64,000 nucleotides of DNA from positions 54,547 through 118,546 of the forward strand of contig JAGIBK010000003.1 in the NCBI GenBank assembly GCA_017744355.1, in the 5' to 3' direction. Every line of letters starts with the position of its first letter. Positions within the stretch are counted from its first letter, which is position 1. Below are positions 10,678 through 36,072 of this stretch, in pieces. The notes beneath the pieces were generated by a model. The model ran no database searches and was not told where the DNA came from. It saw nothing but the letters and a program-made list of their open reading frames with translations. The translations under genes were made by a program, and so were the position numbers. Source of the stretch: a bacterium. Its GTDB lineage: Bacteria; Cyanobacteriota; Sericytochromatia; S15B-MN24; UBA4093.

Positions 10678-10689
10678 CCAGGAGGCCCC

Positions 10690-12285
10690 ATGGCCATCGC
10701 AAGCCCGCGCAAGGGGTTCCAGAACCCGTTCGCCAAGCTGATCACGGATCAGAACTACATGTGGTGGGCGGCCCTGCCGGTCATCATGGGCATGTTCATC
10801 GTCATCATCGACTCGAGCATCGTCAACGTGGCGCTGCCGCACATCATGGCGGCTTTCGGCTCCAACGTCGACGACATCGAGTGGATCTCGACCGGGTACA
10901 TGCTCGCCGCCGCGGCCATGATGCCGACCACCGGCTTCTTGGCCGATCGCTTCGGCCGCAAGAAGCTCTACGCCATCGCCATCTTCCTGTTCACCCTCAC
11001 CTCCATGCTGTGCGGAGCGGCATGGAGCGCCGAGAGCCTCATCTTCTTCCGCATCCTCCAGGGGATCGCGGGCGGCGCCATCCAGCCCGTCGGGCAAGCC
11101 ATCGTCTTCGAGGCGTTCCCGCCCGAAAAGCGCGGCATGTCCATGGCCATCGTGGGCATCGGTGCCATGCTCGCCCCGACCCTGGGCCCCACCCTGGGCG
11201 GGTACCTGGTCGAGTACATCAACTGGCGGTGGATCTTCTACGTCAACCTGGTCCCGGGGCTCATCGCCACCTTCATGGCCGCTGCGGTCCTGCGCGAGAC
11301 GGCCCTCAAGAACGTCAAGATGGACGTCTGGGGCTTCGTCTCCATGGCGATCTTCCTCTCGACCTTCCTGGTGGGCGTCAGCGACGGCCACGCCAAGGGC
11401 TGGGACAGCCCCTACATCTTGGGCCTGTTCGCGGTGGCCGCCGTCAGCTTCGGCCTCTTCCTCGTGATCGAGCTGTGGCGCAAGGAGCCCCTCATCGACC
11501 TACGCCTGTTCAAGAACTTCACCTACAGCGCGGGCACCGTCGCCTCCATCGTCATGGGCATCGGCCTGTTCGGGGGCATGTTCCTGCTGCCGGTCTTCCT
11601 GCAGACCGTCATGGGCTTCGACGCGGTCAAGACCGGCCTCATCATGCTGCCCTCGGGCCTATCGGTCGCCTTCATGATGCCGGTCGCGGGGCTGCTCTCC
11701 AACCGGCTGGACCCGCGGGTGCCGCTGATCGGGGGCCTCAGCCTGATGGGCCTCTCGCTCATCCTCCAGTCCCACATGACCCCCGAGACGCCGCTCTTGA
11801 CCATCTACGGCTGGACCATCCTGCGCGGTATCGGCATGGGGCTCGCCTTCCCCAGCATGAACCAAACGGCCCTGGGGGCGGTCCCCATCCAGAAGATCGG
11901 CCAGGCATCGGGCCTCTTCAACGTCACCCGTCAGATCGGCGGCAGCTTCGGCATCGCGATCCTCGCCACCATCCTGAGCCAGCGCACGGCCTTCCATACA
12001 GCCATTCTGGGCCAGGACGCGGCCCGCACCGGCGTGGCGGGCCACGCCATCGGCGCGCTCAAGGGGCTGATGCTGAGCCACGGCGCAAGCCCTCACGTCG
12101 CTCAGCAACAAGCCGGCGCCGTGATCGGCATGCTCGCGGGCAAGCAGGCCGCCGTCCTCGCCTTCCAGGACACCTTCTGGATCTCGGGGATCATCATGTT
12201 CGCGGGTGCTATCCCCGCCCTCTTCCTGGTCAAGAAGAAACAACAAGGCCAAGCGGGCGCTGCCCACATGGCCGTGATCGAGTAA
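10690..12285 (+). CDS. MFS transporter, DHA2 (EmrB/QacA) drug-efflux family, 14-TMS type
   Basis: MFS signature GFLADRFGRKK and many hydrophobic spans; position between the adaptor and the TolC-like gene. Confidence 0.9.
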   Translation: MAIASPRKGFQNPFAKLITDQNYMWWAALPVIMGMFIVIIDSSIVNVALPHIMAAFGSNVDDIEWISTGYMLAAAAMMPTTGFLADRFGRKKLYAIAIFLFTLTSMLCGAAWSAESLIFFRILQGIAGGAIQPVGQAIVFEAFPPEKRGMSMAIVGIGAMLAPTLGPTLGGYLVEYINWRWIFYVNLVPGLIATFMAAAVLRETALKNVKMDVWGFVSMAIFLSTFLVGVSDGHAKGWDSPYILGLFAVAAVSFGLFLVIELWRKEPLIDLRLFKNFTYSAGTVASIVMGIGLFGGMFLLPVFLQTVMGFDAVKTGLIMLPSGLSVAFMMPVAGLLSNRLDPRVPLIGGLSLMGLSLILQSHMTPETPLLTIYGWTILRGIGMGLAFPSMNQTALGAVPIQKIGQASGLFNVTRQIGGSFGIAILATILSQRTAFHTAILGQDAARTGVAGHAIGALKGLMLSHGASPHVAQQQAGAVIGMLAGKQAAVLAFQDTFWISGIIMFAGAIPALFLVKKKQQGQAGAAHMAVIE

Positions 12286-22328: not shown

Positions 22329-22820
22329 TTAGTGACTTTCGCGCCGTTCGAGGATCACGATGCCCGGCGGCCAGGGGATTCCCGCCGGTTGCGGCGACAG
22401 GATCCGGGCCCCGTCCCCGTCCACCTGGAAGCGCGCGACCCGCTGGAAGGTGCCCCCGCCGCCGTCCTTGACGGTGAGAAAGACCTCGTAGATGCCCGGG
22501 GTACGCGGCGGCAGGTAGGCGCTGTAACTGGTGGCCAGCGAGTCCGAGGCGACCGGCACGCTCTCGGAAGCGACCGATAGCCAGCCTGCGCTGGTGCGCC
22601 AGTTGAAGGCCATCATCCCCACCCCGCTCGCAAGGGCCATGAGTTCGAAGGGGCCGCGCTTCTCCAGGGTGGAGGCAGGGCGCGCCTCAAAACGGACGAT
22701 CAAGGGATTTTGCTCGCTGCGCGGGCCGTAGGCCCCGGTCAAGTGGTCGCAGGCGCTCAACGACGCCACGATCATCGCCCCGGCCACAACCCAGCCCATC
22801 CACTCGCCTGCCTGACGCAT
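22329..22820 (-). CDS. Hypothetical lipoprotein (last gene of the pilus-like locus)
   Basis: ATG at 22820 (GGGAGG upstream) gives MRQAGEWMGWVVAGAMIVASLSAC with a canonical LSAC lipobox. Track ORF extends further 5' without support. Confidence 0.6.
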   Translation of the reverse strand: MRQAGEWMGWVVAGAMIVASLSACDHLTGAYGPRSEQNPLIVRFEARPASTLEKRGPFELMALASGVGMMAFNWRTSAGWLSVASESVPVASDSLATSYSAYLPPRTPGIYEVFLTVKDGGGGTFQRVARFQVDGDGARILSPQPAGIPWPPGIVILERRESH

Positions 22821-22938
22821 GGTGCAGACCTCCCGGGCTGCGCTTATGCAGCCAAGGCTTACGATACCTGCCTTCACGCCCATGCCACAGGCCGGGACCG
22901 ACGAAGTTTCACGCATGCCTCGTGCGATATGACCAAAG

Positions 22939-25437
22939 CTAATTTCTGAGCTTGAGCGTCAACACCAGGCGCTTGATGCCGCGCGGCGCGGTCATTTGAA
23001 GCTCCACCCGGCACGAGCCGGCGGGCAGCGTGGCAGGGAGCCGGGTCGTCACTTGCCAGTCACGTTTGTCCACCCGGCGCAAGGGGATGGGTGGCGATCC
23101 CTCGAAGCGCAGCCAGACCTGACGCGCCGTGGCGATCGCCCGGACCCGCACAGTGACGGGCCGCCCGCGCACGGCGGGGTCGGGGGTGAAGACCACGGGC
23201 GGCGGCGAGTTGTGCGGCGCTTGAGGCTCGGCCGCCGTCTCGAAAAACTCAGCGGACAGGGAGCCGTCGAGCTTGAGCAGGGGGGCCTCTTTCTGGCTCA
23301 CGACGAAGTCCAGGTCGTCGCGTGCGGCCTGCTCTTTCAGAGAAATGGCATGGGCCTGCTCTTCCCAGGTATAGTCGCCGTCCATCGAGGAGCTCGCAAG
23401 GCGTACCACGTAATGGCCCGCCGGCAGGGCCTCGAAGGCGTAGCGACCTTCCGCGTCGGTCCATGTCTCGCGCGCCTCCTCGCCTTCGAGCGCCACGGTG
23501 AGCGACGCCACGCCGCGCCCCTGGCGATCGCGCACGCGGCCCGCGAGGCGGCGCGCGAGCTGGACGTCGAAGCGCAGGTCCAGAAGCTGCTGCCCCTTGG
23601 CCAGGGTAACGGCGCGCACGGTCTGAGCAGGCGCGATCGCAAGCGCCAAAGGCAAGCGATTGGCGTCGAGCGACACGAGGTGAGGGCCCGGCGTGACCTC
23701 GTCGAAGGCAAAGCGCCCATCCGGGGCCACCGTCGCAACCTGCACCCGATCCAGCAGGACCCGCAGCTCGCCTGTGACCGTGCCGGGCGGCAAGAAGACG
23801 CGTCCGCCGAGGCGCGCCGGGCGCTCATCAGGCGTCCTCTCGCCCGGTGGCCCGAAGCGGCTCTCGTAGCGAGCGAGCCAGCGGGCACTCGCCGGCCCAC
23901 CGATGCTCTGTTCGAGCGCCCCCGTCGCGCTGAGCTGCTCGCTCTCGGAGAGCAGGGTGCTCAGATCGAGGCTCAGCCCCACGCGGCTGCTCGGATCGAA
24001 GGGTTCGGTCGCCAGGTGTTCGAGAAAGGCGCCGCTACGGACCTGCACCCGTCGATCCAGGAGCGGCCCGCCCCAGGCGAGGCCGTGCAGGAGCCTGGTC
24101 GGGGCATCCGCGCGAAGCGTCACGTTCTCGTTCCAGTCCAGGGCGCTGCCGAACAGGCCGCTCTCCTGCAAGCCCAGCAGGTGCTGCTGAATGGGAGCAC
24201 CTGAGAAGTGGCTCTGCCACCACTCCCAGCGGGCCCGGCTGCGCTGCGCGAACGGCAGCTGAAAGGTCAGCTCGCTCGCGAGGCGGTCGAAGCGCAGCGC
24301 ATAGGACGTAGAAGCGCTGGTCGTGAGCATGTCGCTCTGCGAGTAGCTCACGTTCGTGCCGGGCCCCTGCCGTGGCTGGTAGGCGAGCCCCACCATGGCA
24401 AAGCCCGATTGCTGGCGCGGCAGGGCCGCATCCCCGGCCAGGTTGAGCATCCCACGCCCCATGGTGGCGTTGGCCTGCCATTCCCCCGAGAGCTCCGCTT
24501 TCAGGGACGCGTTCCAGTTCTCGCGCCCCCCCTCGCGCAGGAAGGCCTGGTAGCGAACCGGCTGGAAGTCGGCCCCCTGGCGCAGGTAGGTACCCTGGAA
24601 GCGCAGGCGATCCCATGGCACCTCGGCCGACCAGCGCGTCCCCCAGTCGGGACGCGCGCCTCCGAGCGCGGCGGCGAGGTCCCCTTCGAGACGCGTCCCG
24701 CCCTCCACGTAGGCTGCCCCGACGCTGGTGAGGCCGCCGCGGATCGCAAGGTCCTCGTCGTCCTGGGCGAGCAGCCTCCCGCGCAAGACGAGGCGATCGG
24801 AGAGGGGCGTCTCCGCCTGGGCGCCGGCGAGGGTGCGGCGGCGCTCGGCCGAGGCGATGGCAGGGCGATCGCGTCCGGCGAAGGCCATCCCCTTCCAGTT
24901 GCGGCCCTGCAGGTGGGCTCCCCCACCGCGGATCGCCAGGTCGTCCATCAAGAGCGCGCCCAGCGAGAGCGCCTCGTCGCCGATCGTCAAAAAGCCACGA
25001 TCGCCCAGGTGGCCGACGAGGCTGAACTCACCGAGTTGCCAGGCCTGGTCCTGCCGGTCGGCGACCGAGCGAAAAGACCAGAGCGTGTCTCCCTGGCTCC
25101 CGCGCAGCGACAAGCCCAGGCGCGACGTGCTCATGCCCTGGCCCGCGTCGCCCCCGTAGCGGCTCGCCCCTTGATGAAGCTGCATTTCGCCCGAGGGCAG
25201 CCAGGGCATGAGGCGCAGGGGGTTGAGCACCCCTTCCGGCAAAGGAGTGGTCGGCACCTTGAGAATGGTTCCCTGGGTCGAAGCCGGTGGTGGCGAGGGT
25301 GCGGCCTTCTTGACGCGCTTGACCACGGGCACCTTGGCCTCGGGCAGCAGGAGCTGTTCGCTCGGCACGGCCCCCCACGCCGCGCCGGCGAAGCCGAGCA
25401 CCCCGATTGCGCATGCCCAGCGGCAAAGCGTACGCAA
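22939..25437 (-). CDS. Large outer-membrane protein, putative pilus usher-like assembly platform (atypical; C-terminal CarboxypepD_reg-like domain)
   Basis: 832 aa with signal peptide; TTG start 3 nt after the chaperone-like gene's stop. Assignment rests on size and gene order (pilin, adhesin, chaperone, this gene), not on a recognised usher motif. Confidence 0.6.
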   Translation of the reverse strand: MRTLCRWACAIGVLGFAGAAWGAVPSEQLLLPEAKVPVVKRVKKAAPSPPPASTQGTILKVPTTPLPEGVLNPLRLMPWLPSGEMQLHQGASRYGGDAGQGMSTSRLGLSLRGSQGDTLWSFRSVADRQDQAWQLGEFSLVGHLGDRGFLTIGDEALSLGALLMDDLAIRGGGAHLQGRNWKGMAFAGRDRPAIASAERRRTLAGAQAETPLSDRLVLRGRLLAQDDEDLAIRGGLTSVGAAYVEGGTRLEGDLAAALGGARPDWGTRWSAEVPWDRLRFQGTYLRQGADFQPVRYQAFLREGGRENWNASLKAELSGEWQANATMGRGMLNLAGDAALPRQQSGFAMVGLAYQPRQGPGTNVSYSQSDMLTTSASTSYALRFDRLASELTFQLPFAQRSRARWEWWQSHFSGAPIQQHLLGLQESGLFGSALDWNENVTLRADAPTRLLHGLAWGGPLLDRRVQVRSGAFLEHLATEPFDPSSRVGLSLDLSTLLSESEQLSATGALEQSIGGPASARWLARYESRFGPPGERTPDERPARLGGRVFLPPGTVTGELRVLLDRVQVATVAPDGRFAFDEVTPGPHLVSLDANRLPLALAIAPAQTVRAVTLAKGQQLLDLRFDVQLARRLAGRVRDRQGRGVASLTVALEGEEARETWTDAEGRYAFEALPAGHYVVRLASSSMDGDYTWEEQAHAISLKEQAARDDLDFVVSQKEAPLLKLDGSLSAEFFETAAEPQAPHNSPPPVVFTPDPAVRGRPVTVRVRAIATARQVWLRFEGSPPIPLRRVDKRDWQVTTRLPATLPAGSCRVELQMTAPRGIKRLVLTLKLRN

Positions 25438-25440
25438 AGG

Positions 25441-26250
25441 CTATCGTTCCAGGAAGGTCTCCGCCTCCAGGGCCTCCTCGCCGCCATAGTCGAGGGAGAC
25501 CTGGGCCTGGTAGCGTCCCGGGGCGAGGTCCTTCTCAAGGGGAAGCTGAAGCAGGCGCTTGCTTTCGCGGATGAGGGCCACGTCCTCGATCTTGAGCTCC
25601 GCGACGGTCGTGCCGTCCGGTCGACTCAGCTTGACCACGCCCGAGCACCGCACATGGACCTTGCCGGGATTCTCCAGCACGAGGCCGACCCGCGCAGGGG
25701 CCTTGCCCTTAGGCGGTAGGTAGGCGACGCCCCCGATCGTGGCCTGCCGCTCGAACGGCGGAACCGCCACGTACAGGGTGTCCCCCAGGCGCTGGCTGAA
25801 GAGGATCATGGAGCGACCCTTCTTGGTGGGCACCTGAGGCGGTGTCGTCTCGAAGAAGAGCATGCCCTGGTACTCGCCCGGCTCGACGCCCGCTGGCACC
25901 GCCACGTTGACCCGGACGGCCTGCTGCTGGTTGGGCAGCAGCACGAACTGCGCCGGCGAGAAGGTGACGAAGCGCTGCGCGGAGTACGCAGACTTGCCCG
26001 GCAGCAAGAAGAGCATCTCCCCCGACGGGTGAAGGCCCCAGTCGGAGTAGTAGGCGCGGACCCGCAGGGCGTCTTTACCCGAGTTGGCGACGGTGACCGA
26101 GAAGGCCTGATTCTCGCCAGGCGTCACGACCAGCTCCTGGCGCGCGGGAAAGATCGACAGCGAGGAGAGCCCAGCCTTGGCGGGGGATGCCCAGGCGAGA
26201 CTCAGCAGGCAGAGGGCCAGGAAGAGGAGGGGGCGAGCTTGGTGCTGCAC
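25441..26250 (-). CDS. Periplasmic pilus-assembly chaperone-like protein (PapD-like fold predicted)
   Basis: GTG start at 26250 gives signal peptide (V)QHQARPLLFLALCLLSLAWASPAKA. Beta-rich pattern IFPARQELVVTPGENQAFSVTVANSG…RVRAYYSDW resembles chaperone N-domain signatures. The track's 57 extra N-terminal residues are Arg-rich and unlikely. Confidence 0.65.
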   Translation of the reverse strand: MQHQARPLLFLALCLLSLAWASPAKAGLSSLSIFPARQELVVTPGENQAFSVTVANSGKDALRVRAYYSDWGLHPSGEMLFLLPGKSAYSAQRFVTFSPAQFVLLPNQQQAVRVNVAVPAGVEPGEYQGMLFFETTPPQVPTKKGRSMILFSQRLGDTLYVAVPPFERQATIGGVAYLPPKGKAPARVGLVLENPGKVHVRCSGVVKLSRPDGTTVAELKIEDVALIRESKRLLQLPLEKDLAPGRYQAQVSLDYGGEEALEAETFLER

Positions 26251-26264
26251 GGAAGAGGCGCCTT

Positions 26265-27776
26265 TCAATACCCGGCCGCCGTGTAGGTGACGGTCGAGAC
26301 GTACGTATCGGAGGTGTAGGCCCAGCTGGGCAGGAACCGGTAGTCGAAGGTCAGGATCCCGCCGTCGGTGCGGCCGTCGAGCGTGGCGAGGCTCAAGGCC
26401 TGCTGGCTGAAGGCGTCCCAAACGCCGTTGCCCCGGCTCAGCTGCACCTGCGCCCTCACCGCCTCTCCCCCGACCGGCGGCCGCGAGGGGCTCGCGCGAA
26501 AGAGGAAGCTCGAAAGGGGGAGGGTCTCGCGCTCCGAGGTGGGCGCGGTCGCCGCGACCGAGAGGGTGGTTTGGCCATAGTTGCTCTTGAGCGTGACCAC
26601 CGCCGCGCCATCGGCCTGATCGGTGCCGGGGGCCTCCGGGTCGGAGACCAGCTGGATGGGCCCCGTGTTGACGGTGAGCGTCAAGCGAGGGGGCACCGTC
26701 ACCGCAACGGTCGTGGGGGTCAGGACCGCGGGCGGTGCGGCGCCGCTCGCGAAAGCGGCGGTATAGGTCAACTGCGACGTGTAAGTGGCCGGGGCGTACG
26801 CCCAGTCGCTGTCCACCTGAAAGCTCAGATCGAAGGGCGTCTCGGCGGAAGGCCCCGAGAACGAGGCCACCGTCTGGTCCGTTTCGCTCAGGGCACGGGG
26901 CGCGGCCGAGCCGAGACGGAAGGTATAGGCGCCGAAGGGGATGGTGTTGATGCCGTCCGAGAGGGGCCTTGCCCGGATGGCGAGCGTCGTCGCCTCCCCT
27001 GGCCGGGCGTTGCTCTTGAGCACCGCCCTCACGTTGGAGGTGGCGGGCGAAGCCGCCAGCGGATCGGCCGTCAACGTGAAGTGACTCGGCGGGACCGAGA
27101 GGGCCACGCGAGGCGGCACGGTAAGCGCGATCGCGAGGCTGGTCGGCAACACCGGCCCATCCTCGAGGCGGTATCCGTAGCTGAGGCCTGCCGAATAGGT
27201 GCCCCAGGGCTGCAGCCAGCTGTTCTTCAGCTTGAGCTGCGTGTTGTAATACCGGGCACCCTTCTTGCTCTTGCTCAGCCCGAACTGGCGCGTCGCGGTC
27301 GCAAGGGCCTGGTTATTGGGGTTGCTCCGCGATCGCGTGGCCGTCCAGACGGACTTGGAGTCGGTCCCGGCCCCGTCCCAGACCAGGTTGGCGAGCGGCA
27401 TGCTGCCGAACGAGGATAAAAGGTCGCCCGACGCGCCGAGGAAGGCCCCGACCTCGTCCTTCTTGGGGGTCAGAAACCAGAGCGGATCCTGGAGCAGGCC
27501 GCCGAGATCCAGGTCCAGATCGAGCGAAAGACCATCGTCGGGGCCGTTCTGCGAATAGCTGAGTTCGTACTGGATACCGGGGGAGAGGATCGAGACGGGC
27601 TCCGTATCAGGGTTGGAGGCCTCCATGACCCCTACCAGGGAGACGGCACCGCCAAGGGGCGCCCCCGTGGCGGCGTTTTTCAACGACGTCACGGGCGGCG
27701 CCACCTTGGAATCAGCGATCGCCTCGGTTGCCAGTCCCAGCCATGTCGCCACGACCAGGAGGGACAGCCGACGCAT
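26265..27776 (-). CDS. Secreted multi-domain pilus subunit / tip-adhesin-like protein with two SCPU-like modules
   Basis: Signal peptide. Two modules ending in the motif YTSQLTYTAA / YTSDTYVSTVTYTAA, shared with the adjacent 170-aa pilin. Start 2 nt after the pilin stop. Confidence 0.7.
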   Translation of the reverse strand: MRRLSLLVVATWLGLATEAIADSKVAPPVTSLKNAATGAPLGGAVSLVGVMEASNPDTEPVSILSPGIQYELSYSQNGPDDGLSLDLDLDLGGLLQDPLWFLTPKKDEVGAFLGASGDLLSSFGSMPLANLVWDGAGTDSKSVWTATRSRSNPNNQALATATRQFGLSKSKKGARYYNTQLKLKNSWLQPWGTYSAGLSYGYRLEDGPVLPTSLAIALTVPPRVALSVPPSHFTLTADPLAASPATSNVRAVLKSNARPGEATTLAIRARPLSDGINTIPFGAYTFRLGSAAPRALSETDQTVASFSGPSAETPFDLSFQVDSDWAYAPATYTSQLTYTAAFASGAAPPAVLTPTTVAVTVPPRLTLTVNTGPIQLVSDPEAPGTDQADGAAVVTLKSNYGQTTLSVAATAPTSERETLPLSSFLFRASPSRPPVGGEAVRAQVQLSRGNGVWDAFSQQALSLATLDGRTDGGILTFDYRFLPSWAYTSDTYVSTVTYTAAGY

Positions 27777-27778
27777 GC

Positions 27779-28291
27779 TTAGGGGGCAGCGACGGTGTAG
27801 GTCACGGTCGAGGTGTAGTCGCCCGCGTCATAGTCGAAGCTGTTGCCGAGCAGATAGGTGACGTTGACGTGGGCGCCGTTCTTGCCGGTCTTCGTGTTGA
27901 GGTCCTTCACCGAAGTCGCCGTGGTGTCCGAGAAGGTGACGGCGGTGTTGGAGCTATCCACCCGGTACTTGAAGTTGGAAAGGGGAATCGACGAGCCGGC
28001 CGCGGTGCCCGCGCCCTGCGGGGCGGTGGCGGTCACGCTGACCTTGGCGCCGCCCTTGTAGTTGCTGAACACGGTGAGGCCCGAGGCGAGGCTCGAAGCG
28101 GTGCCGTCGGCCGCGTCCGGATCGACGGTCAGGGTGCCGGCGAGGTTGTCCATCACGATGGAGAGACGCGCCGGAACGCTGATGTTGACGGTGTGGGTGC
28201 CGTTGGTGGCAGCCTGCGCCACGGGGGCCATGGCAACGAAAAGGCCGAGCGCGAGGGCGCCGGCGCTAAACTGGGTGATTGACTTCATCAT
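27779..28291 (-). CDS. SCPU (spore coat protein U)/Csu-type pilin-like secreted subunit
   Basis: Signal peptide MMKSITQFSAGALALGLFVAMAPVAQA; ~145-aa Thr/Ser/Val-rich mature part ending YTSTVTYTVAAP. First gene after an AT-richer promoter region. Confidence 0.72.
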   Translation of the reverse strand: MMKSITQFSAGALALGLFVAMAPVAQAATNGTHTVNISVPARLSIVMDNLAGTLTVDPDAADGTASSLASGLTVFSNYKGGAKVSVTATAPQGAGTAAGSSIPLSNFKYRVDSSNTAVTFSDTTATSVKDLNTKTGKNGAHVNVTYLLGNSFDYDAGDYTSTVTYTVAAP

Positions 28292-28478: not shown

Positions 28479-28850
28479 CTAACGCAAGGGCCACCAGCGT
28501 CTGGGGATCGCGCTACGGTGCTCGGCCACCCATCGATAGAGCCGATCTTCCCCCCACCGCACGGGAGGCACGTGATAGAGCAGGGCCAGGCAGCCCCAGA
28601 CGCCGCCGAGGGCGCGGAAAGTTCGATTGATCGCCGCTGCCCCTGCGTAGCGTCGTCCCTGAGGCTCGATCGCCCACGCCTCGCGCGCGGCTTGCTCACG
28701 CGTCAAGCCCAGCTCCTCGAGCAGGCCAGGTTCCTGAAAGGGAACGGCCTGGATGCGGCCCGCGCGATCGCGGGCCCTCACCCAGGCCACGGTATCCCGG
28801 CACAAGCCGCATTCCCCATCGTAGACGAGGATCAAGCGCTGCGCGTCCAC
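28479..28850 (-). CDS. Thiol-disulfide oxidoreductase, DCC family (DUF393)
   Basis: Motif VYDGECGLC near the N-terminus; GTG start at 28850 closely following the upstream gene's stop. Confidence 0.82.
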   Translation of the reverse strand: MDAQRLILVYDGECGLCRDTVAWVRARDRAGRIQAVPFQEPGLLEELGLTREQAAREAWAIEPQGRRYAGAAAINRTFRALGGVWGCLALLYHVPPVRWGEDRLYRWVAEHRSAIPRRWWPLR

Positions 28851-28858
28851 CTCGGGGC

Positions 28859-29332
28859 TCAGTACATGCCGAACCGGTCGGGAGTCTGGACCAAGTTGCG
28901 ATCGCGCTCCATGGCCCCCGCCTGCATCTGCTGCGCGAGCTGGGCCTGTTGCTGCTGAGCTTGAAGCGACCCCGCCTCGAGGCCGGTGGTCTGGGCGATC
29001 GCCTCGAGTTGCTTCTTGATATCGTCCAGCTTGCGCGCCACGTCGAGAGCGGCCGCCCCGCCGCCTCCTTGGCCGCCGCCAGCGTCGAGGCCCCCGTCAC
29101 CCTTGCCCGGGGCGGCGTCCGCCATTTGCTGGAGCTGGGCGAGCTGGGCCATGAGGGCCTTCATCGCCTCGGGATTGGCCCCGCTCGCCAGGGCATTCTT
29201 GATCAGCTCGCCGAGCTGCTTGATCTCCTGATCCAGCTTGGCGCCGACCTCTTGGAGCTGTTTGAAGTCAGGAGCACCCTGCGCGCGCTGCAGCGCCTGG
29301 AACCCACCGCCCCCGATCCCGTCGATGCCCAT
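28859..29332 (-). CDS. Hypothetical Gln/Ala/Gly-rich protein (predicted coiled-coil / disordered)
   Basis: AAGGAGG RBS 5 nt upstream of ATG 29332; GC-biased third positions; low-complexity but in-frame throughout. Confidence 0.68.
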   Translation of the reverse strand: MGIDGIGGGGFQALQRAQGAPDFKQLQEVGAKLDQEIKQLGELIKNALASGANPEAMKALMAQLAQLQQMADAAPGKGDGGLDAGGGQGGGGAAALDVARKLDDIKKQLEAIAQTTGLEAGSLQAQQQQAQLAQQMQAGAMERDRNLVQTPDRFGMY

Positions 29333-29449: not shown

Positions 29450-31114
29450 TCAGATGTGATAGCCGCGGAAGCGCTCGGTCTTGGCCTGCGGGCGCAGCAC
29501 GGCCGCGTCCTGGACCCGGGCGGCCTCCTGGGCCACGCCGAAGTAGTCGAGCCACTCTTGCGGGGCGTCGATGGTCTCGCCGCCGTGGCTCGTCAGGCGC
29601 GATCGCACCTGGCACAGCACCGGAGTATTGATCGCAACCCCCGCCACCACCACTTGCCCCTTGGTCAGGGCCGGCAGCTCGTCCAGCAGGTCGCGCCCCG
29701 CGCCCTCGACCGAGCTTGCGATGGTCTGCTGGTCGATGGGGTTCACGATCTTCATGATGAACTGGGTCATGCACTGGGAGAGCACGTCGCTGTCCAGCTT
29801 GCCCGGTCGCTGGGTGATGAGGCCGACCCCCACGCCGAACTTGCGGCCCTCGGCGAGGATCGTCTTGAGGATCGGGGTGCTGACGACTGTGGCCCCGGCC
29901 GGTGCGAAGCGGTGGGCCTCTTCGAGCAGCACGAAGACCGGGTAAGGCACGTAGGTCTCGCCGTCGTGGACCTTGCCGTTCTTGGTGTCCATCCGCGCGC
30001 GGTTGATGCGCCTGAGCAGGGTCGAGACGATCACCTGCTGCATGTCCTGGTCGATCTCGTTGAGCTGGATGACCGTGACCTGGCCGGGGGCGAACAGCTC
30101 GGGCAAAGGCAGGTGGTCCCGGTCGTGGAAGATCCGCGATCGCGCGAAGCGGTCCTCGAGGCGCCAGCGGATGCCCTCGATGGTGCTCGCGTTGGAGGAC
30201 GGATCGTCCTCGGCCCCCTCGGTGCGCATGGCATCCAGCGCGTTGAAGAGGTCCTGGAGGCCCCACAGGTGGCCGTCACCCTTGCGGCCCCGGACCCGGT
30301 CGAAGGCCTTGCCGAGGAAGGCGTTCATCTTCTCGCTCATCATGGGCAGCAGCGATCGCACGTCAGTCTCGGTGAGGCTCGAGAAGCGGATCCGCACCTG
30401 ATCGTGCGGGATGATCCGCACCCGAGGCCGGTAGCCGCCCTGCGAGAAGGCCGGATGGTTCTCGAACTCGCGGAAGGTGTGGTACTCGCCGTGGGGGTCG
30501 ATGACGAGCACCGCCGCGCGGTTGTAGGGGCGCAGCAGCTCCTCGATGAGCACACCCGCCGTGTAGCTCTTGCCGGAGCCGGTGGAGGCCAGAATGGCCA
30601 GGTGGGTCGAGACCAGGTTCTTGACGTCCAGCACCACGGGCACCTCGCCGGCCGCTCGGGTCAAGAGCGAGCCGAGGTGGGCCGAGCCTGGCGCCCCTTC
30701 GGTCTTGGGGCTCAAGACCTCGGTCAAGAAGGCGCTACTGGCCAGGTGGACCCGCGCACCCGGATCGGGCATCATCCGCGGATTGACGAAGCCCTTGAAG
30801 CGCGGATCGAAGTAGCCCGCGATCGAGACCGTCACCTCGTAGAGCTCAGGGGTGGCCGCGTCGAAGCCGATCAGCTCGGCCACCTCGGAAGGCGGGATGT
30901 GGGGATCCGCGAGGAAGGCGTCGGGCAGGGTGCGAACGATGGCCTTCTCGGTGATCTTGCCGAGGATCAGGCGCTCGGTGCCGTCCACCGACACCGGGTA
31001 GTAGACGAACTCGCCCACCTTGGTGCGGGCGTTGTCCGGGGTGATGAAGCGGTACTCGTGGGCGCTCTCGCCCGGGCCCTTGACGGTGCCGATCAACAGG
31101 TCTTGGCTCATCAC
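29450..31114 (-). CDS. herA: HerA-like ATPase/helicase (FtsK-HerA superfamily, DUF87-type)
   Basis: Walker A ILASTGSGKSYT, Walker B VFVLLEEAHRF, LITQRP motif, N-terminal barrel-like region. GTG/ATG start overlaps the upstream gene's TGA (GTGATGA). Confidence 0.88.
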   Translation of the reverse strand: MMSQDLLIGTVKGPGESAHEYRFITPDNARTKVGEFVYYPVSVDGTERLILGKITEKAIVRTLPDAFLADPHIPPSEVAELIGFDAATPELYEVTVSIAGYFDPRFKGFVNPRMMPDPGARVHLASSAFLTEVLSPKTEGAPGSAHLGSLLTRAAGEVPVVLDVKNLVSTHLAILASTGSGKSYTAGVLIEELLRPYNRAAVLVIDPHGEYHTFREFENHPAFSQGGYRPRVRIIPHDQVRIRFSSLTETDVRSLLPMMSEKMNAFLGKAFDRVRGRKGDGHLWGLQDLFNALDAMRTEGAEDDPSSNASTIEGIRWRLEDRFARSRIFHDRDHLPLPELFAPGQVTVIQLNEIDQDMQQVIVSTLLRRINRARMDTKNGKVHDGETYVPYPVFVLLEEAHRFAPAGATVVSTPILKTILAEGRKFGVGVGLITQRPGKLDSDVLSQCMTQFIMKIVNPIDQQTIASSVEGAGRDLLDELPALTKGQVVVAGVAINTPVLCQVRSRLTSHGGETIDAPQEWLDYFGVAQEAARVQDAAVLRPQAKTERFRGYHI

Positions 31115-31686
31115 TTCACCGCCTGGATGGTTCGCTGCCAGTTGAGCGCGTTGCGCAGCACCCCGAGCCGTGCGCGATCCTCAGGGCAGAGGGAGTTGAG
31201 GCGATCGAGGACCGCAAGGAGCAAGCTAAGGCTCGCAGGGCCTCCGTTCGCCTGCACCAGGGGCAGGTAGCGCAGCTGGAGGCGCCCCGTCTCGTCCCGG
31301 TGAAAGCGAACAAAGTCCTCGTCCGGCAGGGTCTCGACCTCGGAGTGGACCGGGATCACCTCGCCCGGCACCTCGTGGACCCCGTGCAGAGCGCCCAGGC
31401 GCCCGAGCAACAGGACGCTCACGAGCGTTGCCTGCTCGTCGATGAGGTCCGGCGTGAAGACCCGGATCTCTTGGGGCGAGTTGCTCAGGCGGGGACCGAA
31501 GTGGCCGAAGTCGGGGTTCTGGAGCTGGGAGTCGAAGACGATGCCGATCGCATCCCCCGCCAGGCGCACGAAGCGGCCGAAGGCGTAAGCGCCAGGCTCG
31601 GGAGGCTCGGGGATCTCACCCGGATGGTAGATCTGGCAGACGTAGTCCAGGTGCGATCGCGACGAGACGATCTTTCCGATGCGCAA
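31111..31686 (-). CDS. Hypothetical protein encoded between nurA and herA
   Basis: TTG start at 31686 with GGAGGGAAGG RBS; stop overlaps herA start; GC-biased third positions; no recognisable motif. Confidence 0.6.
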   Translation of the reverse strand: MRIGKIVSSRSHLDYVCQIYHPGEIPEPPEPGAYAFGRFVRLAGDAIGIVFDSQLQNPDFGHFGPRLSNSPQEIRVFTPDLIDEQATLVSVLLLGRLGALHGVHEVPGEVIPVHSEVETLPDEDFVRFHRDETGRLQLRYLPLVQANGGPASLSLLLAVLDRLNSLCPEDRARLGVLRNALNWQRTIQAVK

Positions 31687-31743
31687 GGCCTTCCCTCCAG
31701 TCGAAGCAACCTTTCGATTCTAGAACAAACGATTGATGTCCGG

Positions 31744-32901
31744 CTAGCGGCGCCGGAGCTTGGAGAGGGCCTTCTTCGAGAAGCGCAGCGGCACGCCGCG
31801 CACGTCGAGGAACTCCTGGACGGTGCGGTAGAAGCCGTCGCGATCGGCCGCCGAGAGCACCGCCGTCGCATCCGCCGCCGCCAGCGTGTAGGGGTAGCCG
31901 CCGCCTGCGATCGCATCGGCGCGCACCACGTCCAGCACCTCGTCCAAGAGGCCCGCCTCCTGGATCCAGAGGGGGTACTCCAGGCGCGCGGGCGGCGCGT
32001 CGGCATTGGTCTGCAGGTAGCAGAAGCCGATGCGGCGGGCCCAGTCTCCATAGTTGTCGAGGATCCCCTCGCGCGCGCAGATGGCGGTCGGGGTGCGATC
32101 GCCCCACTCCAGGCGACCCGCAAGCAGCGCGGCGTCGCTGACCCCGCCGGTCCCCGAGAGGCCCCGCCAGCTGGCGAGCATGGTCGCGAGGTCGTGGGCG
32201 TAAGAGGTGTCCACGTAAGCGATGAGCGGCACCCGCGCGGCCTCGGCGTCAGCCAAGAGCCCTCTCACGAGCTCCACGTACCGAAGTGAATAGGCGTCCT
32301 GCTTGCGCTTCTCAGCAAAGGAGACCACCAGGCTGCCGTCCAGGTAGACGATGCGCCCGGGCTCACCCGGCGCGGCCAGGTAGCGCCTGAGGGCGGCCAC
32401 CTCCAGCTCGAAGCGCGCGAGGTCCACCTTGCGCTTGGGCGGGCCCACCTCGTCCTCCTTGAGGTCGTCGGGGCCCAGCACTCGCACGTCCACGTCCTTG
32501 CGGTAGCCTGGGGCCTCGGCGGCATGCAGGTTCTCGAACCACCCCACCTGGACCAGGGCCACCGGCAGCGAAAAGCGCCGATCGGGCTCGATCTGGCTGC
32601 CGTCCGCCGCGAAGGTCGGCCGGCCCGCGAGCTTATTGAAAGCCCAGGCCCTCGCCGCGGAGTGGTCGTTCCATGAAAGGCCGAAAGGGATCCGCGCACC
32701 CCGGTCCCACTCTTCGGTGGGCAGAGCGCCGGGCGCATCGAAAGTGGCAAGGGCCGCCCCGAGCGACGCGGCATCGGCCTCGGAAAGCGCATCGAGGGCC
32801 GCGACGAGCGCTTCGAGCCGTCCGGTCAGGGCGGCGTCGTAGGCGTCGAACGCGCTCGCGCAGGCTTCCAGGGCCCCCAAGAGGCGATCGCGGTAGAGCA
32901 T
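31744..32901 (-). CDS. nurA: NurA-domain 5'-3' nuclease
   Basis: NurA-like N-terminal catalytic motif (…FAADGSQIEPD…); ATG 32901 lies 2 nt after the patatin stop (TGAgcATG); position upstream of herA as in known nurA-herA pairs. Confidence 0.8.
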   Translation of the reverse strand: MLYRDRLLGALEACASAFDAYDAALTGRLEALVAALDALSEADAASLGAALATFDAPGALPTEEWDRGARIPFGLSWNDHSAARAWAFNKLAGRPTFAADGSQIEPDRRFSLPVALVQVGWFENLHAAEAPGYRKDVDVRVLGPDDLKEDEVGPPKRKVDLARFELEVAALRRYLAAPGEPGRIVYLDGSLVVSFAEKRKQDAYSLRYVELVRGLLADAEAARVPLIAYVDTSYAHDLATMLASWRGLSGTGGVSDAALLAGRLEWGDRTPTAICAREGILDNYGDWARRIGFCYLQTNADAPPARLEYPLWIQEAGLLDEVLDVVRADAIAGGGYPYTLAAADATAVLSAADRDGFYRTVQEFLDVRGVPLRFSKKALSKLRRR

Positions 32902-32903
32902 GC

Positions 32904-34172
32904 TCAGGCGTCGAGGGCGTGGTCGAACTCGCGCGCCATGATGAGAGCCTCCTCGGGGATGTCGGCGACACCCAGGTCGGTGGTGACCCAGGCCTCGCGC
33001 CCCAGGGCGAGGTTGGCGTCGTGATAGCCCTGCTGAATGTAGGTCTCGCGCAGCTCAGGGTGGAAGAACCCCTCGAAGACGTCACCCGGCAAGGACGGCC
33101 GGGGGAAGATGGGGATCAAGCGCACGATCCGCCGCCCCAACAGATCGTCGAGGCTCTTGTAGCCTGCCGCCAGGGCCAGGGTCTCGTTGAAGGTGTTGGC
33201 GAGGACATTGCCGTTCTTGCCGCGCTTGAGCAGCTGGTGAAGGCGAGCGAGCTTGTCGTTCTCCTTGCGGACCTTGCGGTAGTTCTGGACGACGAAGCGG
33301 CCCGCGAGCATCGAGAAGACCCGGCCCAGGACCCCGTAGAGCGTGTCGGGCTCGTGCTCGGGTCGATCGACCACCGTCACGCCCGACACCACCAGCACCG
33401 TGTCGATGTCAGGATCCATGCTGATCACGCGGCCGATGGGCGCGTTGTCCATCAGGCCGCCGTCGAACAGCATCGCGCCGCTCGCCGCGTCGCGGGTGGG
33501 CGGGAAGAGGAAGGGAAAGGAGCTCGACGCCTCGATCATCCGCGTCAGGCGGGGCTGGACGTTCGCCTCCCATTCCTCGTGGGTGGTGTCGGCGCTCCAG
33601 ACGTAGTCCTCGTAGACCGAGTAGCGCGCAGCAAGCTCCATGGCGTCGCTCAAGGAGGTGGAGCCCATCAGGTCGGTGGCGACCAGGCTCAGCTTGACGG
33701 GCCGCTTGATGACCTGCGGAAGGCGGACGTAGTCCTCCATGATCTGCCGGACGAAGTGGTGGGAGATGAGCGAGGCGAAGTCGCCACGGATCAACTGCTC
33801 GAAGGCGAAGAGGGAGTCGAAGCCGATGCGGGGGCGGTACTGCCGGCGCAGGGGGTCGACCCCGATGCGGTTGAAGAGGGTGCGCAGGTTGCGGCGCTCC
33901 AATTCGTCGCCGTCCATCCGGCCGAAGCCGTGGTAGAGGTTCTGCGCGTTGACCGTCTCGCGCCAGTGGTACACCAGCTCCGACTCGACCGCCTGGCCCG
34001 TGAACTGACCGGCGGCAATGAGCTGGGCCGCGAAGGTCCCGTTGATGGCCCCCGCCGAGATGCCCACGATGGCGTCGGGGTAGATCTGGTGCTCAGCGAT
34101 GGCCTTGAGGACGCCCGCTTCGTACGCCCCCTTGGCGACCCCGCCGCACAGTACCAAGCCTACCTTGCCCAT
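32904..34172 (-). CDS. Patatin-like phospholipase
   Basis: Oxyanion-hole motif GGVAKGAYEAG, lipase serine motif GISAG, catalytic Asp motif DGGLMDN. RBS GGAGGG before ATG 34172; first gene of the operon. Confidence 0.88.
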   Translation of the reverse strand: MGKVGLVLCGGVAKGAYEAGVLKAIAEHQIYPDAIVGISAGAINGTFAAQLIAAGQFTGQAVESELVYHWRETVNAQNLYHGFGRMDGDELERRNLRTLFNRIGVDPLRRQYRPRIGFDSLFAFEQLIRGDFASLISHHFVRQIMEDYVRLPQVIKRPVKLSLVATDLMGSTSLSDAMELAARYSVYEDYVWSADTTHEEWEANVQPRLTRMIEASSSFPFLFPPTRDAASGAMLFDGGLMDNAPIGRVISMDPDIDTVLVVSGVTVVDRPEHEPDTLYGVLGRVFSMLAGRFVVQNYRKVRKENDKLARLHQLLKRGKNGNVLANTFNETLALAAGYKSLDDLLGRRIVRLIPIFPRPSLPGDVFEGFFHPELRETYIQQGYHDANLALGREAWVTTDLGVADIPEEALIMAREFDHALDA

Positions 34173-34262
34173 ATCGTGTCCCTCCGCGCGAGCGCCATCG
34201 CTTGCACCCTCCTTGTACCCAGCAGGCGCCGGATCGTCGCGCTTACAGCAAAGCGGGCCTTA

Positions 34263-34490
34263 TCCGAAAAAATGGCCAAAATGCTGAGGGCAAGTAGCCA
34301 AATATCAGGATGACAAGGTCACCACCTGGCTTTCAGGCCCAAGCTCGCCCCCCGAAAAAGCGCGAGAGCACGCGTTGTAGAAGGATGGACCAGCCCCTAG
34401 CATCGACGTCGGCGCACAGGGGGACGAGCTTCATTGCTCGGGGCTCCCCAACACCGCCGGATGGCCCTCGGGGCCGGGAGGTTGCGAACG
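34263..34490 (+). repeat. Conserved 5' leader, copy A, upstream of the first RGG/aromatic-rich secreted protein gene
   Basis: Shares long near-identical blocks with 35209..35424 (CCG(A/G)AAAAATGGCCAAA(A/G)TGCTGAGGG…, a ~90-nt core …AGAGCACGCGTTGT…CAGCCCCTAGCATCGAC(G/C)TCGGCGCACA…GGGGG…CGAG, and GGAGGTTGCGAACGATGAAACGGGT). Confidence 0.8.
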
Positions 34491-35114
34491 ATGAAACGGG
34501 TGAAGATGTCGACTTGGATCATCGGCGGCTTAGCCGTTACGGCGACAGCAGCTTGCTCGACCGTGGTTCCGAACACCCCCACGGTCAGCGAAGCTCCGAA
34601 GCCCTTGGCGCAAGTCGCCCCCGATCGCACGATCCTCGCTGAGATCCAGATGCCCAACGAGGATATCTTGAAGTCGCTGCCCAAGGAGATCAGCGAAGCC
34701 GATGCCAAGAAACTGCTCGTTACGCTCCCCATAGATAAGGTTGAGGCTCCTCTGACGATGGGCGACGAGCCGTCGCGCACCACCCTGCAACGGGGCTTCC
34801 GCGGTGGCTTCCGTGGCGGCTTCGGCCGGGGCTTCGGGTTCGGCCGCGGCTTTGGTCGCGGATTCGGCTTCGGCCGCGGCTTCGGCCTCGGCTTCGGCGG
34901 CCTCGGCTTCAGCGGCCTCGGTTGGGGCGGCTGGGGCGGCTGGGGGCCACTCTGGTACCCCTACCAAAACTGGTGGTTCCCCTACACTTGGTCCGGCGCC
35001 GCCTGGACGCCCTACTACTGGCCGACCACCTGGGGCGGCTACAACTACCCCTTCGCGTGGGGCGCGCGCGGACGTTGGTGGCCCTCCGTCTGGCGTTCCC
35101 GCTGGATGTGGTAA
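34491..35114 (+). CDS. Secreted protein (possible lipoprotein) with RGG/FG glycine-arginine repeats and Trp/Tyr-rich C-terminal tail, paralog 1
   Basis: ATG 34491 with GGGAGG RBS; signal peptide MKRVKMSTWIIGGLAVTATAAC; GFRGGFRGGFGRGFGFGRGFG… then WYPYQNWWFPYTW…; GC-biased third positions. Confidence 0.72.
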   Translation: MKRVKMSTWIIGGLAVTATAACSTVVPNTPTVSEAPKPLAQVAPDRTILAEIQMPNEDILKSLPKEISEADAKKLLVTLPIDKVEAPLTMGDEPSRTTLQRGFRGGFRGGFGRGFGFGRGFGRGFGFGRGFGLGFGGLGFSGLGWGGWGGWGPLWYPYQNWWFPYTWSGAAWTPYYWPTTWGGYNYPFAWGARGRWWPSVWRSRWMW

Positions 35115-35208: not shown

Positions 35209-35424
35209 TCCGGAAAAATGGCCAAAGTGCTGAGGGTAAGTCGAACGATCTCGCTGCAAGAGGGGTGGGGACCTCGATCAGGGCCGAAGCCCGCCCCCTG
35301 CGAAAGCGCCAGAGCACGCGTTGTGGGATTGATGGCCAGCCCCTAGCATCGACCTCGGCGCACAAGGGGGCGAGTTGCTCCTCGGTGTCGCCGAACGGCC
35401 CCAAGGGCCAGGAGGTTGCGAACG
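35209..35424 (+). repeat. Conserved 5' leader, copy B, upstream of the second RGG/aromatic-rich secreted protein gene
   Basis: See copy A; tandem duplication of leader plus gene plus terminator. Confidence 0.8.
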
Positions 35425-36072
35425 ATGAAACGGGTAAACATGTCAACCTGGATCGTCACGGGTCTCGCCCTCACGGCAGCCGGTTGCTCGACTGCGGCTC
35501 CGAGCGTCCCGCCCGTCAGCGACACGCAGAACCCGACCCCTCAAGTCGCCCCTGAGCGCGGCGTTCTCGCGGAAGGCCAAGAGCCCAACGCAGAAGTATT
35601 GAACGCGCTGCCCAAGCGGATCAGCGAAGCCGATGCCAGGAAGATCCTCGTCAACCTGCCCGCTGACAAGGTCCAGGGCTCTTTGACGGGCGACGACGAC
35701 CGTAGCATCATGCAGCGTGGTCGCGGCGGTGGGTTCCGGGGCGGTGGGTTCCGGGGCGGTGGGTTCCGGGGCGGCGGGTTCCGGGGCCGTGGCTTCACGG
35801 GTCGCGGGTTCCGGGGCCGTGGCTTTACGGGTCGTGGCTTCCGGCGATTTACGGGCCGCGGCTTCCGTAACAACATCTTCGTTGGCGGCCTCGGGTTTGA
35901 TACTTTCGCCTACTATCCCTACGCCAACTACTACTATCCGTACTATCTGTACGACGGCTACTACTATCCGTACTCCTACCCCTACTACGGCAATTACTAC
36001 TATCCGTACTACTACGGCGCTGGCTCGTACTACTATCCGAGTTACTGGCGCTACGGCCGCCGGTGGTGGTAG
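35425..36072 (+). CDS. Secreted protein (possible lipoprotein) with RGG repeats and Tyr/Pro-rich C-terminal tail, paralog 2
   Basis: ATG 35425 with identical RBS context; signal peptide MKRVNMSTWIVTGLALTAAGC; GGGFRGGGFRGGGFRGGGFRGRGF… then YYPYANYYYPYYLYDGYYYPYSYPYYG…. Confidence 0.72.
   Translation: MKRVNMSTWIVTGLALTAAGCSTAAPSVPPVSDTQNPTPQVAPERGVLAEGQEPNAEVLNALPKRISEADARKILVNLPADKVQGSLTGDDDRSIMQRGRGGGFRGGGFRGGGFRGGGFRGRGFTGRGFRGRGFTGRGFRRFTGRGFRNNIFVGGLGFDTFAYYPYANYYYPYYLYDGYYYPYSYPYYGNYYYPYYYGAGSYYYPSYWRYGRRWW

Follow-up and report, generated by a model that had tools for sequence, protein, structure and literature searches.

What does a patatin-like phospholipase gene do beside the genes of a DNA-end-processing machine: does it share their task, or is it only their neighbour? 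The question is raised by a 64,000-nt stretch of contig JAGIBK010000003.1 (the whole stretch is called the window here), which comes from a genome whose nearest relatives are Candidatus Sericytochromatia metagenome-assembled genomes (MAGs). Sericytochromatia are non-photosynthetic relatives of cyanobacteria. The minus strand of the window carries four co-oriented open reading frames (ORFs) for patatin, the nuclease NurA, a protein of 191 aa and the ATPase HerA, and a preliminary description had presented them as a candidate multi-effector system. Our analysis upholds one part of that proposal, the place of the 191-aa gene beside nurA and herA, and speaks against the other, patatin as a component, since patatin orthologues occur without the other genes and the other genes occur elsewhere without patatin. 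We propose that the conserved unit is probably a three-gene nurA-DUF8166-herA module for DNA-end processing, DUF8166 being the family of the 191-aa protein, which lies beside a resident, co-transcribed lipase gene and is not part of a four-gene patatin system.

Organization of the locus

The four genes, their domain assignments and the two junctions singled out in the preliminary description were confirmed by the ORFs, by Pfam and by reading the sequence (Table 1). The patatin stop and the nurA start are joined as TGA, 'gc', ATG (TGAgcATG), and the DUF8166 stop overlaps the herA start (GTGATGA). NCBI entries MBO9540762-65 are exactly these four proteins, among which NurA is MBO9540764.1 and the 191-aa protein is labelled 'hypothetical protein'; HerA starts there at ATG 31111 (553 aa), against GTG 31114 in our ORF list. 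The loosest junction of the unit is nurA|DUF8166, where a 57-nt spacer carries a GGAGGG ribosome-binding site ahead of the TTG start and where other genes intervene in close relatives. A terminator scan of the minus strand gave no intrinsic-terminator-like site separating the four genes, a promoter scan gave no sigma-70-type promoter in the region, and patatin is predicted to be co-transcribed with the module genes in the window.

Conservation of the 191-aa gene beside nurA and herA

All 31 homologues of the 191-aa protein (31-90% identity, full length) carry the precomputed assignment PF26500, which is DUF8166. The protein itself matches nothing in Pfam, NCBIfam or PADLOC scans even at E 10, the Pfam copy scanned being one without the PF26500 model. 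A profile search of 1.84 billion representatives collected 341 clusters of the family, which is of modest size and diverse. Two apparent DUF8166 fusions (P0151 and P0159) were dropped because they look like chimeric gene calls (isochorismatase/RapZ, tRNA-synthetase fragments).

The gene order around DUF8166 was surveyed in one genome per GTDB species with two peptide patterns, a scan that under-samples the family. It gave 80 loci, 4 in Sericytochromatia and 76 in Ktedonobacteria, and HerA lies directly downstream of DUF8166 in 78 of them, the other two matches being near the end of a contig. In this set, only the Sericytochromatia loci have patatin and NurA upstream of DUF8166. When contexts were sampled from the side of NurA, DUF8166 followed NurA in three of three: a Synechococcus PCC 7336-like contig (L089), where NurA, DUF8166 and HerA genes all overlap and a small membrane protein follows HerA, an acidobacterial MAG (L090) and an unclassified metagenome contig (L091). 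Among 72,556 plasmids, the NurA and DUF8166 queries matched the same four haloarchaeal megaplasmids, and the three whose annotation was read (L092, L093 and L096; NZ_CP119991.1, NZ_CP084885.1 and CP002989.1) have, in this order, a metallophosphoesterase (Mre11-like), an SMC ATPase (Rad50-like), NurA, a hypothetical protein (DUF8166) and a DUF87/ATP-binding protein (HerA). These clusters are preceded by a DEAD/DEAH helicase gene or a phospholipase-D-family gene, and both HerA and NurA are reported to be lacking in the model haloarchaeon H. volcanii. In the three megaplasmids the trio thus stands behind mre11- and rad50-like genes, the arrangement of the canonical archaeal end-resection operon. 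On this comparison of gene orders, the place of the 191-aa gene beside nurA and herA is conserved.

In the Ktedonobacteria, genes for GT9, MoxR and DUF58 proteins flank the DUF8166-HerA pair in about 40 of 75 loci, and this conserved synteny suggests that the pair is inherited vertically and is not a mobile island. A Mre11/Rad50-like link was also looked for in this group and rejected, such genes lying within 10 kb in only 2 of the 76 loci, without a pattern.

The patatin gene and its orthologues

The distribution of the patatin gene is of another kind. The window patatin belongs to a sharply bounded clade of about 400-422 aa, at whose edge the E value falls from 1e-53 to 1e-9 for generic patatins; its named members all come from Sericytochromatia-type genomes, and the clade occurs mostly away from any NurA or HerA. 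Within 9 kb of the orthologues at 36, 38, 42, 51 and 68% identity (L085-L088 and L094), neither NurA nor DUF8166 nor HerA is encoded. In two of these loci, L094 (68%) and L088 (51%), patatin lies without the module in the same syntenic block as in the window, a block that includes genes of ~101-110 aa and ~479-482 aa, an HD hydrolase and an M17 peptidase, and in L094 also MnmA upstream of patatin. In the slot that is filled by the module in the window, these two loci have MotA/MotB or unrelated genes. Since the orthologues keep their syntenic position without the module, patatin is, by synteny, a resident anchor gene beside a variable slot and not a conserved member of the module. No patatin was found in the modules of the other lineages sampled (L089, L090, L091 and the haloarchaeal plasmids), and as far as these gene orders go, patatin abuts NurA only in one Sericytochromatia sub-lineage. 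Comparative genomics, named in advance in the preliminary description as the check on its claim that patatin is a conserved neighbour of nurA-herA, went against that claim.

Within this sub-lineage the patatin|nurA junction is tight, being 0-2 nt or overlapping in every locus with both genes (the window, L001 and L005-L008), and it was kept where the nurA|DUF8166 junction was interrupted. Opposite-strand genes lie between nurA and DUF8166 in L001 (a GGDEF response regulator and a PAS kinase) and L005 (a lipoprotein), L006 has a gap of similar size, and an AIM24-family gene (PF01987, E 4.8e-71) has the same place in L007 (6524-7264) and L008 (6702-7469). With one junction repeatedly broken and the other kept, the four-gene unit of the window therefore amounts to two coupled pairs. 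In a further relative, L095, NurA has been lost and the order is patatin-AIM24-DUF8166-HerA, the AIM24 gene (10369-11061) occupying the place of nurA. L095 and its sister L007 share 92% identity in HerA, 92% in AIM24, 82% in patatin and 63% in DUF8166, whereas the NurA-containing sisters L007 and L008 share 84% in DUF8166 and 79% in patatin. In this single case the divergence of DUF8166 after NurA loss looks as would be expected if DUF8166, but not patatin, were tied to NurA.

A tight junction of this sort, kept in L001, L005, L007 and L008 while its neighbour was broken and with no terminator inside the unit, would also be expected of a real functional pair, and it speaks for a single defence or stress system of patatin, NurA, DUF8166 and HerA in this Sericytochromatia lineage, one in which NurA-HerA would sense or process nucleic acids and patatin would, in concert, hydrolyse membrane lipids. 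The patatin could serve in such a system, as its catalytic motifs are intact (G10-G11-x-x-K14-G15, G37-x-S39-x-G41 and D237-G238 are invariant across its clade), it has a patatin fold with the Ser-Asp dyad, and this fold is equally close to the CBASS effectors CapE and CapV and to housekeeping patatins. Yet orthologues without the module, whether at the same position (L088, L094) or elsewhere (L085-L087), have the same ~400-422 aa and the same invariant columns; the NurA-linked protein has no extra domain in comparison with them, and a structure search gave no additional nucleic-acid-related domain. Patatin is missing from the modules of all other lineages sampled, and the loss of NurA left its divergence unchanged (82% identity for the pair L095 and L007, 79% for L007 and L008). 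PADLOC models of phospholipase effectors match only residues 192-246, a stretch of 55 residues, at E 1e-5; unlike CBASS patatin effectors (CapV/CapE), the window patatin has no cyclase domain among its scanned neighbours and no other CBASS gene close by, nor is there a cyclase among the Pfam-annotated genes of related loci, and in comparison with CBASS effectors, PlpD and RssA it falls in its own 400-422-aa clade. The surrounding genes look housekeeping or secreted, without the look of a defence island. We consider the four-gene system unlikely; the patatin-nurA adjacency appears to have been inherited in one sub-lineage and most likely does not reflect functional coupling. The combination of patatin, NurA and HerA appears to be undescribed, as had been supposed, the three being found together nowhere in the literature searched, and the tempting but unsupported 'patatin-NurA-HerA defence system' can be dropped from the list of candidates.

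Predicted fold and proposed role of the DUF8166 protein

The preliminary description had left the 191-aa protein unassigned, and structure prediction with a Foldseek search now gives it a probable fold. The AlphaFold2 model (pLDDT 85, pTM 0.80) has a six-stranded barrel (residues ~1-120) and then three helices, the C-terminal helical bundle spanning ~141-190. Because the best 50 Foldseek matches of this model are all HerA chains, we predict that DUF8166 is a free-standing HAS (HerA-ATP-synthase) barrel, a copy of the N-terminal domain of HerA, with a helical tail. The HerA of the window has its own N-terminal HAS barrel, and its N-terminal 140 residues align with other HerA N-termini. Both barrels are acidic, with an isoelectric point (pI) of 5.2 for DUF8166 and 5.0 for the HAS domain of HerA. 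The columns invariant across the diverse DUF8166 family (V40, G48, G95, F128-H129, Y140 and W183) are unlike a catalytic site, and from its sequence the protein appears to be a small acidic one with no evident catalytic motif.

NurA is a 5'-3' nuclease. The HerA hexamer translocates double-stranded DNA and the NurA dimer docks on its HAS-barrel ring (PMC9960219, PMC3326311), the HAS barrel being the docking surface for NurA in both D. radiodurans and S. solfataricus (PMC9960219). In the mechanism that we favour, translational coupling would give DUF8166 and HerA in near-equimolar amounts, DUF8166 would assemble with the HerA ring, either on its HAS-barrel face or within it, and would form or modulate a docking platform for the NurA dimer, as an adaptor or as a gate. 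The complex would unwind and resect DNA ends like the classical NurA-HerA machine, and this end processing would cooperate with Mre11-Rad50-type proteins where their genes are linked.

A third NurA-HerA subunit of this kind appears to be undescribed, and our literature search found DUF8166 or a third subunit mentioned nowhere in a relevant sense. Its gene is conserved in a whole clade of NurA-HerA systems, from cyanobacteria and their non-photosynthetic relatives to Acidobacteria, Ktedonobacteria and haloarchaeal megaplasmids, and this gives the uncharacterized DUF8166 a first functional context; a predicted mimic of the domain of HerA on which NurA docks is also a testable handle on how helicase-nuclease assembly or activity is controlled. 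A more far-reaching proposal joins a DUF8166 HAS-barrel ring that mediates or gates NurA docking, in a three-component machine exchanged between bacteria and haloarchaeal plasmids, to a patatin wired in through translational coupling with nurA in one Sericytochromatia lineage. If true, it would make the processing of DNA ends or foreign DNA and the hydrolysis of membrane lipids act as one defence or stress response; we regard it as very unlikely.

Competition, rather than assembly, is another use to which a HAS-barrel mimic could be put. As a decoy or inhibitor, DUF8166 would draw NurA away from HerA or close off the HerA pore, so that a dangerous nuclease-helicase would stay inactive as long as it is not needed. 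Its predicted fold is the same as that of the NurA-docking domain, with a nearly equal pI, and NurA-DUF8166 pairs occur without an adjoining HerA (L090, L091). NurA-HerA is dispensable in Deinococcus and Thermus, and its deletion increases UV resistance in Thermus (PMC7776575), so that regulation would be useful. The start/stop overlap with herA suggests, however, co-assembly with HerA and not the titration of NurA, and in the Ktedonobacteria DUF8166 is kept with HerA with no NurA nearby. We take the decoy to be a possible but rather doubtful role.

Several observations weigh against the three-gene end-processing module, besides the tight patatin|nurA junction described above. DUF8166 gives no profile-profile signal with the N-termini of its cognate HerA proteins (hhalign probability 0.2%), and the DUF8166 profile has only chance-level matches among PDB sequences, so that the HAS-barrel assignment rests on predicted structure. 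The opposite-strand genes in L001 and L005 rule out a common transcript for patatin-nurA and DUF8166-herA there. HerA does not adjoin NurA-DUF8166 in L090 and L091, and in the ~76 Ktedonobacteria loci a single-sequence phmmer search (E <= 1e-3) found no NurA within 10 kb of DUF8166-HerA, while in 68 of 75 loci the gene after HerA encodes a conserved membrane protein of ~125 aa with four predicted hydrophobic helices (e.g. L060, 12465-12836). Nor is there agreement on what NurA-HerA does physiologically in bacteria (PMC7776575). Finally, the patchy, slot-like spread in Sericytochromatia and the haloarchaeal plasmid sites would also fit an accessory or defence role.

NurA and HerA in comparison with known systems

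The catalytic motifs that the preliminary description had reported as intact are so in all three enzymes: in addition to the patatin columns given above, NurA D100-G101-S102 and D188, together with other acidic or His columns, do not vary among 12 diverse relatives (from Sericytochromatia, Cyanobacteria, Acidobacteria, Chloroflexota and haloarchaeal plasmids), and the HerA translation shows Walker A TGSGKS and Walker B VLLEEAH. Acidobacteria, Chloroflexota and true Cyanobacteria also encode full-length NurA relatives of 43-48% identity. The locus shares with the archaeal and Deinococcus NurA-HerA systems (S. solfataricus 4D2I, T. kodakarensis 9X1L, D. radiodurans 7F6D) a DGS-motif NurA nuclease and a HerA with a HAS barrel and a RecA-like ATPase with Walker A/B, both genes lying in one cluster; on the three haloarchaeal plasmids read, the homologous modules continue a mre11-rad50-like operon.

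The closest solved relatives of the window HerA are archaeal repair enzymes, T. kodakarensis HerA (9x1l, 6.9e-49) and S. solfataricus HerA (4d2i, 2e-36), whereas HerA structures from defence systems score 1e-25 or weaker, and D. radiodurans HerA gives no sequence match at E 1e-5. Against the NCBIfam repair models NF040819 / NF040937 it scores 202 bits (cutoff 970) and 150 bits (cutoff 800), and against the anti-phage equivalogs NF042943 and NF042944 it scores 91 bits (cutoff 800) and 87 bits (cutoff 850). By these comparisons the window HerA has its nearest kin among the archaeal repair enzymes, with the anti-phage HerAs further off, and since it falls below all these equivalog cutoffs it is a distinct HerA clade, within which 42-53% identity is held from Sericytochromatia to haloarchaeal plasmids. 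The locus as a whole has no PADLOC or NCBIfam system match, in agreement with the earlier suspicion that it matches no named system. In contrast to the two-gene NurA-HerA systems, for which the papers searched show no third subunit (PMC9960219, PMC7776575), it has DUF8166 as a third conserved gene between nurA and herA; its HerA lies at 202 bits against the 970 of the equivalog cutoff for characterized repair HerA; and no homologue of Mre11 or Rad50 was detected among the ORFs of the 64-kb window. By domain content the locus is a NurA-HerA system, though its sequences do not make it an equivalog of the characterized ones.

Could the module, without patatin, be an anti-phage or anti-plasmid DNA degrader, with NurA as the effector and DUF8166 as the sensor or regulator? 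In the proven defence systems Sir2-HerA (Nezha) and DUF4297-HerA, HerA is the scaffold (PMC11291478, PMC11472057), but the window has neither a Sir2 nor a DUF4297 effector, the partner of HerA being NurA and a protein without a catalytic motif. The HerA scores, far higher against repair than against anti-phage models and structures, point in the same direction, and neither NurA nor DUF8166 has a PADLOC match. The genomic settings are divided. The module is present in some and absent from other close Sericytochromatia relatives, in a variable slot; the haloarchaeal megaplasmid sites adjoin helicase, phospholipase-D-family and transposase genes, yet the trio there continues a mre11-rad50-like operon, a classical repair arrangement. 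The Ktedonobacteria pair, found in 76 species-representative loci with conserved flanks in about 40 of 75, speaks against a defence role, and the module was not found in phage genomes (by tblastn) or in viral contigs (by pattern scan). We therefore place a defence function among the less likely possibilities, with end processing by the three-gene module as the preferred reading.

Two loci in the wider family have the flavour of conflict systems. In L091 (10248-16464), NurA-DUF8166 is followed by a Pkinase-TIR-AAA_35 gene and two further AAA_35 genes, and the gene of a distant DUF8166 protein, P0029 (37% identity), has a DNA_pol_B_exo2-type exonuclease on one side and an N6/N4 DNA methyltransferase on the other; HerA was not seen there. 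Both contexts would suit an anti-phage role.

A methylase also stands in the operon that supports a further alternative. DNA donation by T. thermophilus ('transjugation') requires NurA-like and HerA-like genes of the element ICEth1, in an operon of four genes for a restriction enzyme, the NurA-like nuclease, the HerA-like TdtA and a methylase, with a role other than classical repair (PMC5365140), and by analogy the module could be a membrane-associated device for DNA export or transfer. Both have a bacterial NurA-family nuclease encoded upstream of a hexameric ATPase of the HerA family. Behind HerA, 68 of 75 Ktedonobacteria loci and also L089 encode a small membrane protein, and the N6/N4 methylase beside P0029 recalls that of the tdtA operon. 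In the window, however, HerA is followed by a soluble Q/A-rich protein and no membrane protein, and the Thermus operon has no DUF8166-like gene between nuclease and TdtA (PMC5365140). The 64-kb window has no tRNA gene and no restriction enzyme or methylase neighbours; the nearest flanks are patatin and the Q/A-rich gene, the flanks are syntenic backbone genes shared with module-less relatives, and the Pfam-annotated relatives show no adjoining integrase or restriction enzyme, an integrase not having been specifically searched for. The haloarchaeal mre11-rad50 link points to end processing, and we think a transfer device highly improbable.

Neighbouring genes and other features of the window

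Two small genes follow herA on the same strand (Table 1), and the preliminary description had allowed that they might belong to the same transcript. Homologues of the Q/A-rich gene lie downstream of HerA in L001-3, L005, L008 and L095, with a weak match in the module-less L088, and the gene is absent from the NurA-DUF8166(-HerA) modules of other phyla; from this distribution it is a local backbone neighbour and not a component of the module. For the DCC1-like gene, phmmer gave no homologue beside the module in any related locus, and on that count it is not a conserved neighbour.

Table 1. Positions of the module, its neighbours and other features in the 64,000-nt window
Feature	Position	Strand	Remarks
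Patatin-like phospholipase gene	32904..34172	-	422 aa; PF01734 E 7.9e-22
nurA	31744..32901	-	NurA-family nuclease, 385 aa; PF09376 E 2.4e-36; first gene of the conserved three-gene core
DUF8166 gene	31111..31686	-	191 aa, TTG start; predicted HAS barrel and helical tail
herA	29450..31114	-	554 aa; DUF87/HerA central domain E 5.8e-45; HerA/FtsK-superfamily hexameric ATPase
Q/A-rich gene	28859..29332	-	157 aa; own ribosome-binding site; 117 nt after herA
DCC1-like thiol-disulfide oxidoreductase gene	28479..28850	-	123 aa; PF04134 E 1.1e-23
Five-gene run	22329-28291	-	170, 503, 326, 832 and 195 aa; several signal-like N-termini
Tandem paralogous genes	34434-35114, 35416-36072	+	N-terminal hydrophobic signal-like segments; no meaningful Pfam match
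Antisense ORFs	29456-31270 (604 aa), 32673-34313 (546 aa)	+	Opposite herA and patatin/nurA

The five-gene run fills part of the variable slot between patatin and the conserved block of 104-aa, 479-aa, HD and M17 genes. Its sole Pfam signal is CarboxypepD_reg in the 832-aa protein, and the run resembles a gene cluster for surface or fibre assembly. One of the tandem paralogues has a C-terminal half of GGFRGG/GFGRGF repeats, and the other has RGG followed by Tyr/Pro/Trp-rich repeats. The two long antisense ORFs are Arg/Gly/Ala-rich and have the look less of genes than of the stop-codon-poor antisense frames typical of high-GC DNA. The window (1-64000) contains 56 copies of the octamer GCGATCGC, the cyanobacterial HIP1 palindrome, against ~2.5 expected from base composition, an excess that is notable in a genome of 67% GC whose nearest relatives are non-photosynthetic Sericytochromatia.

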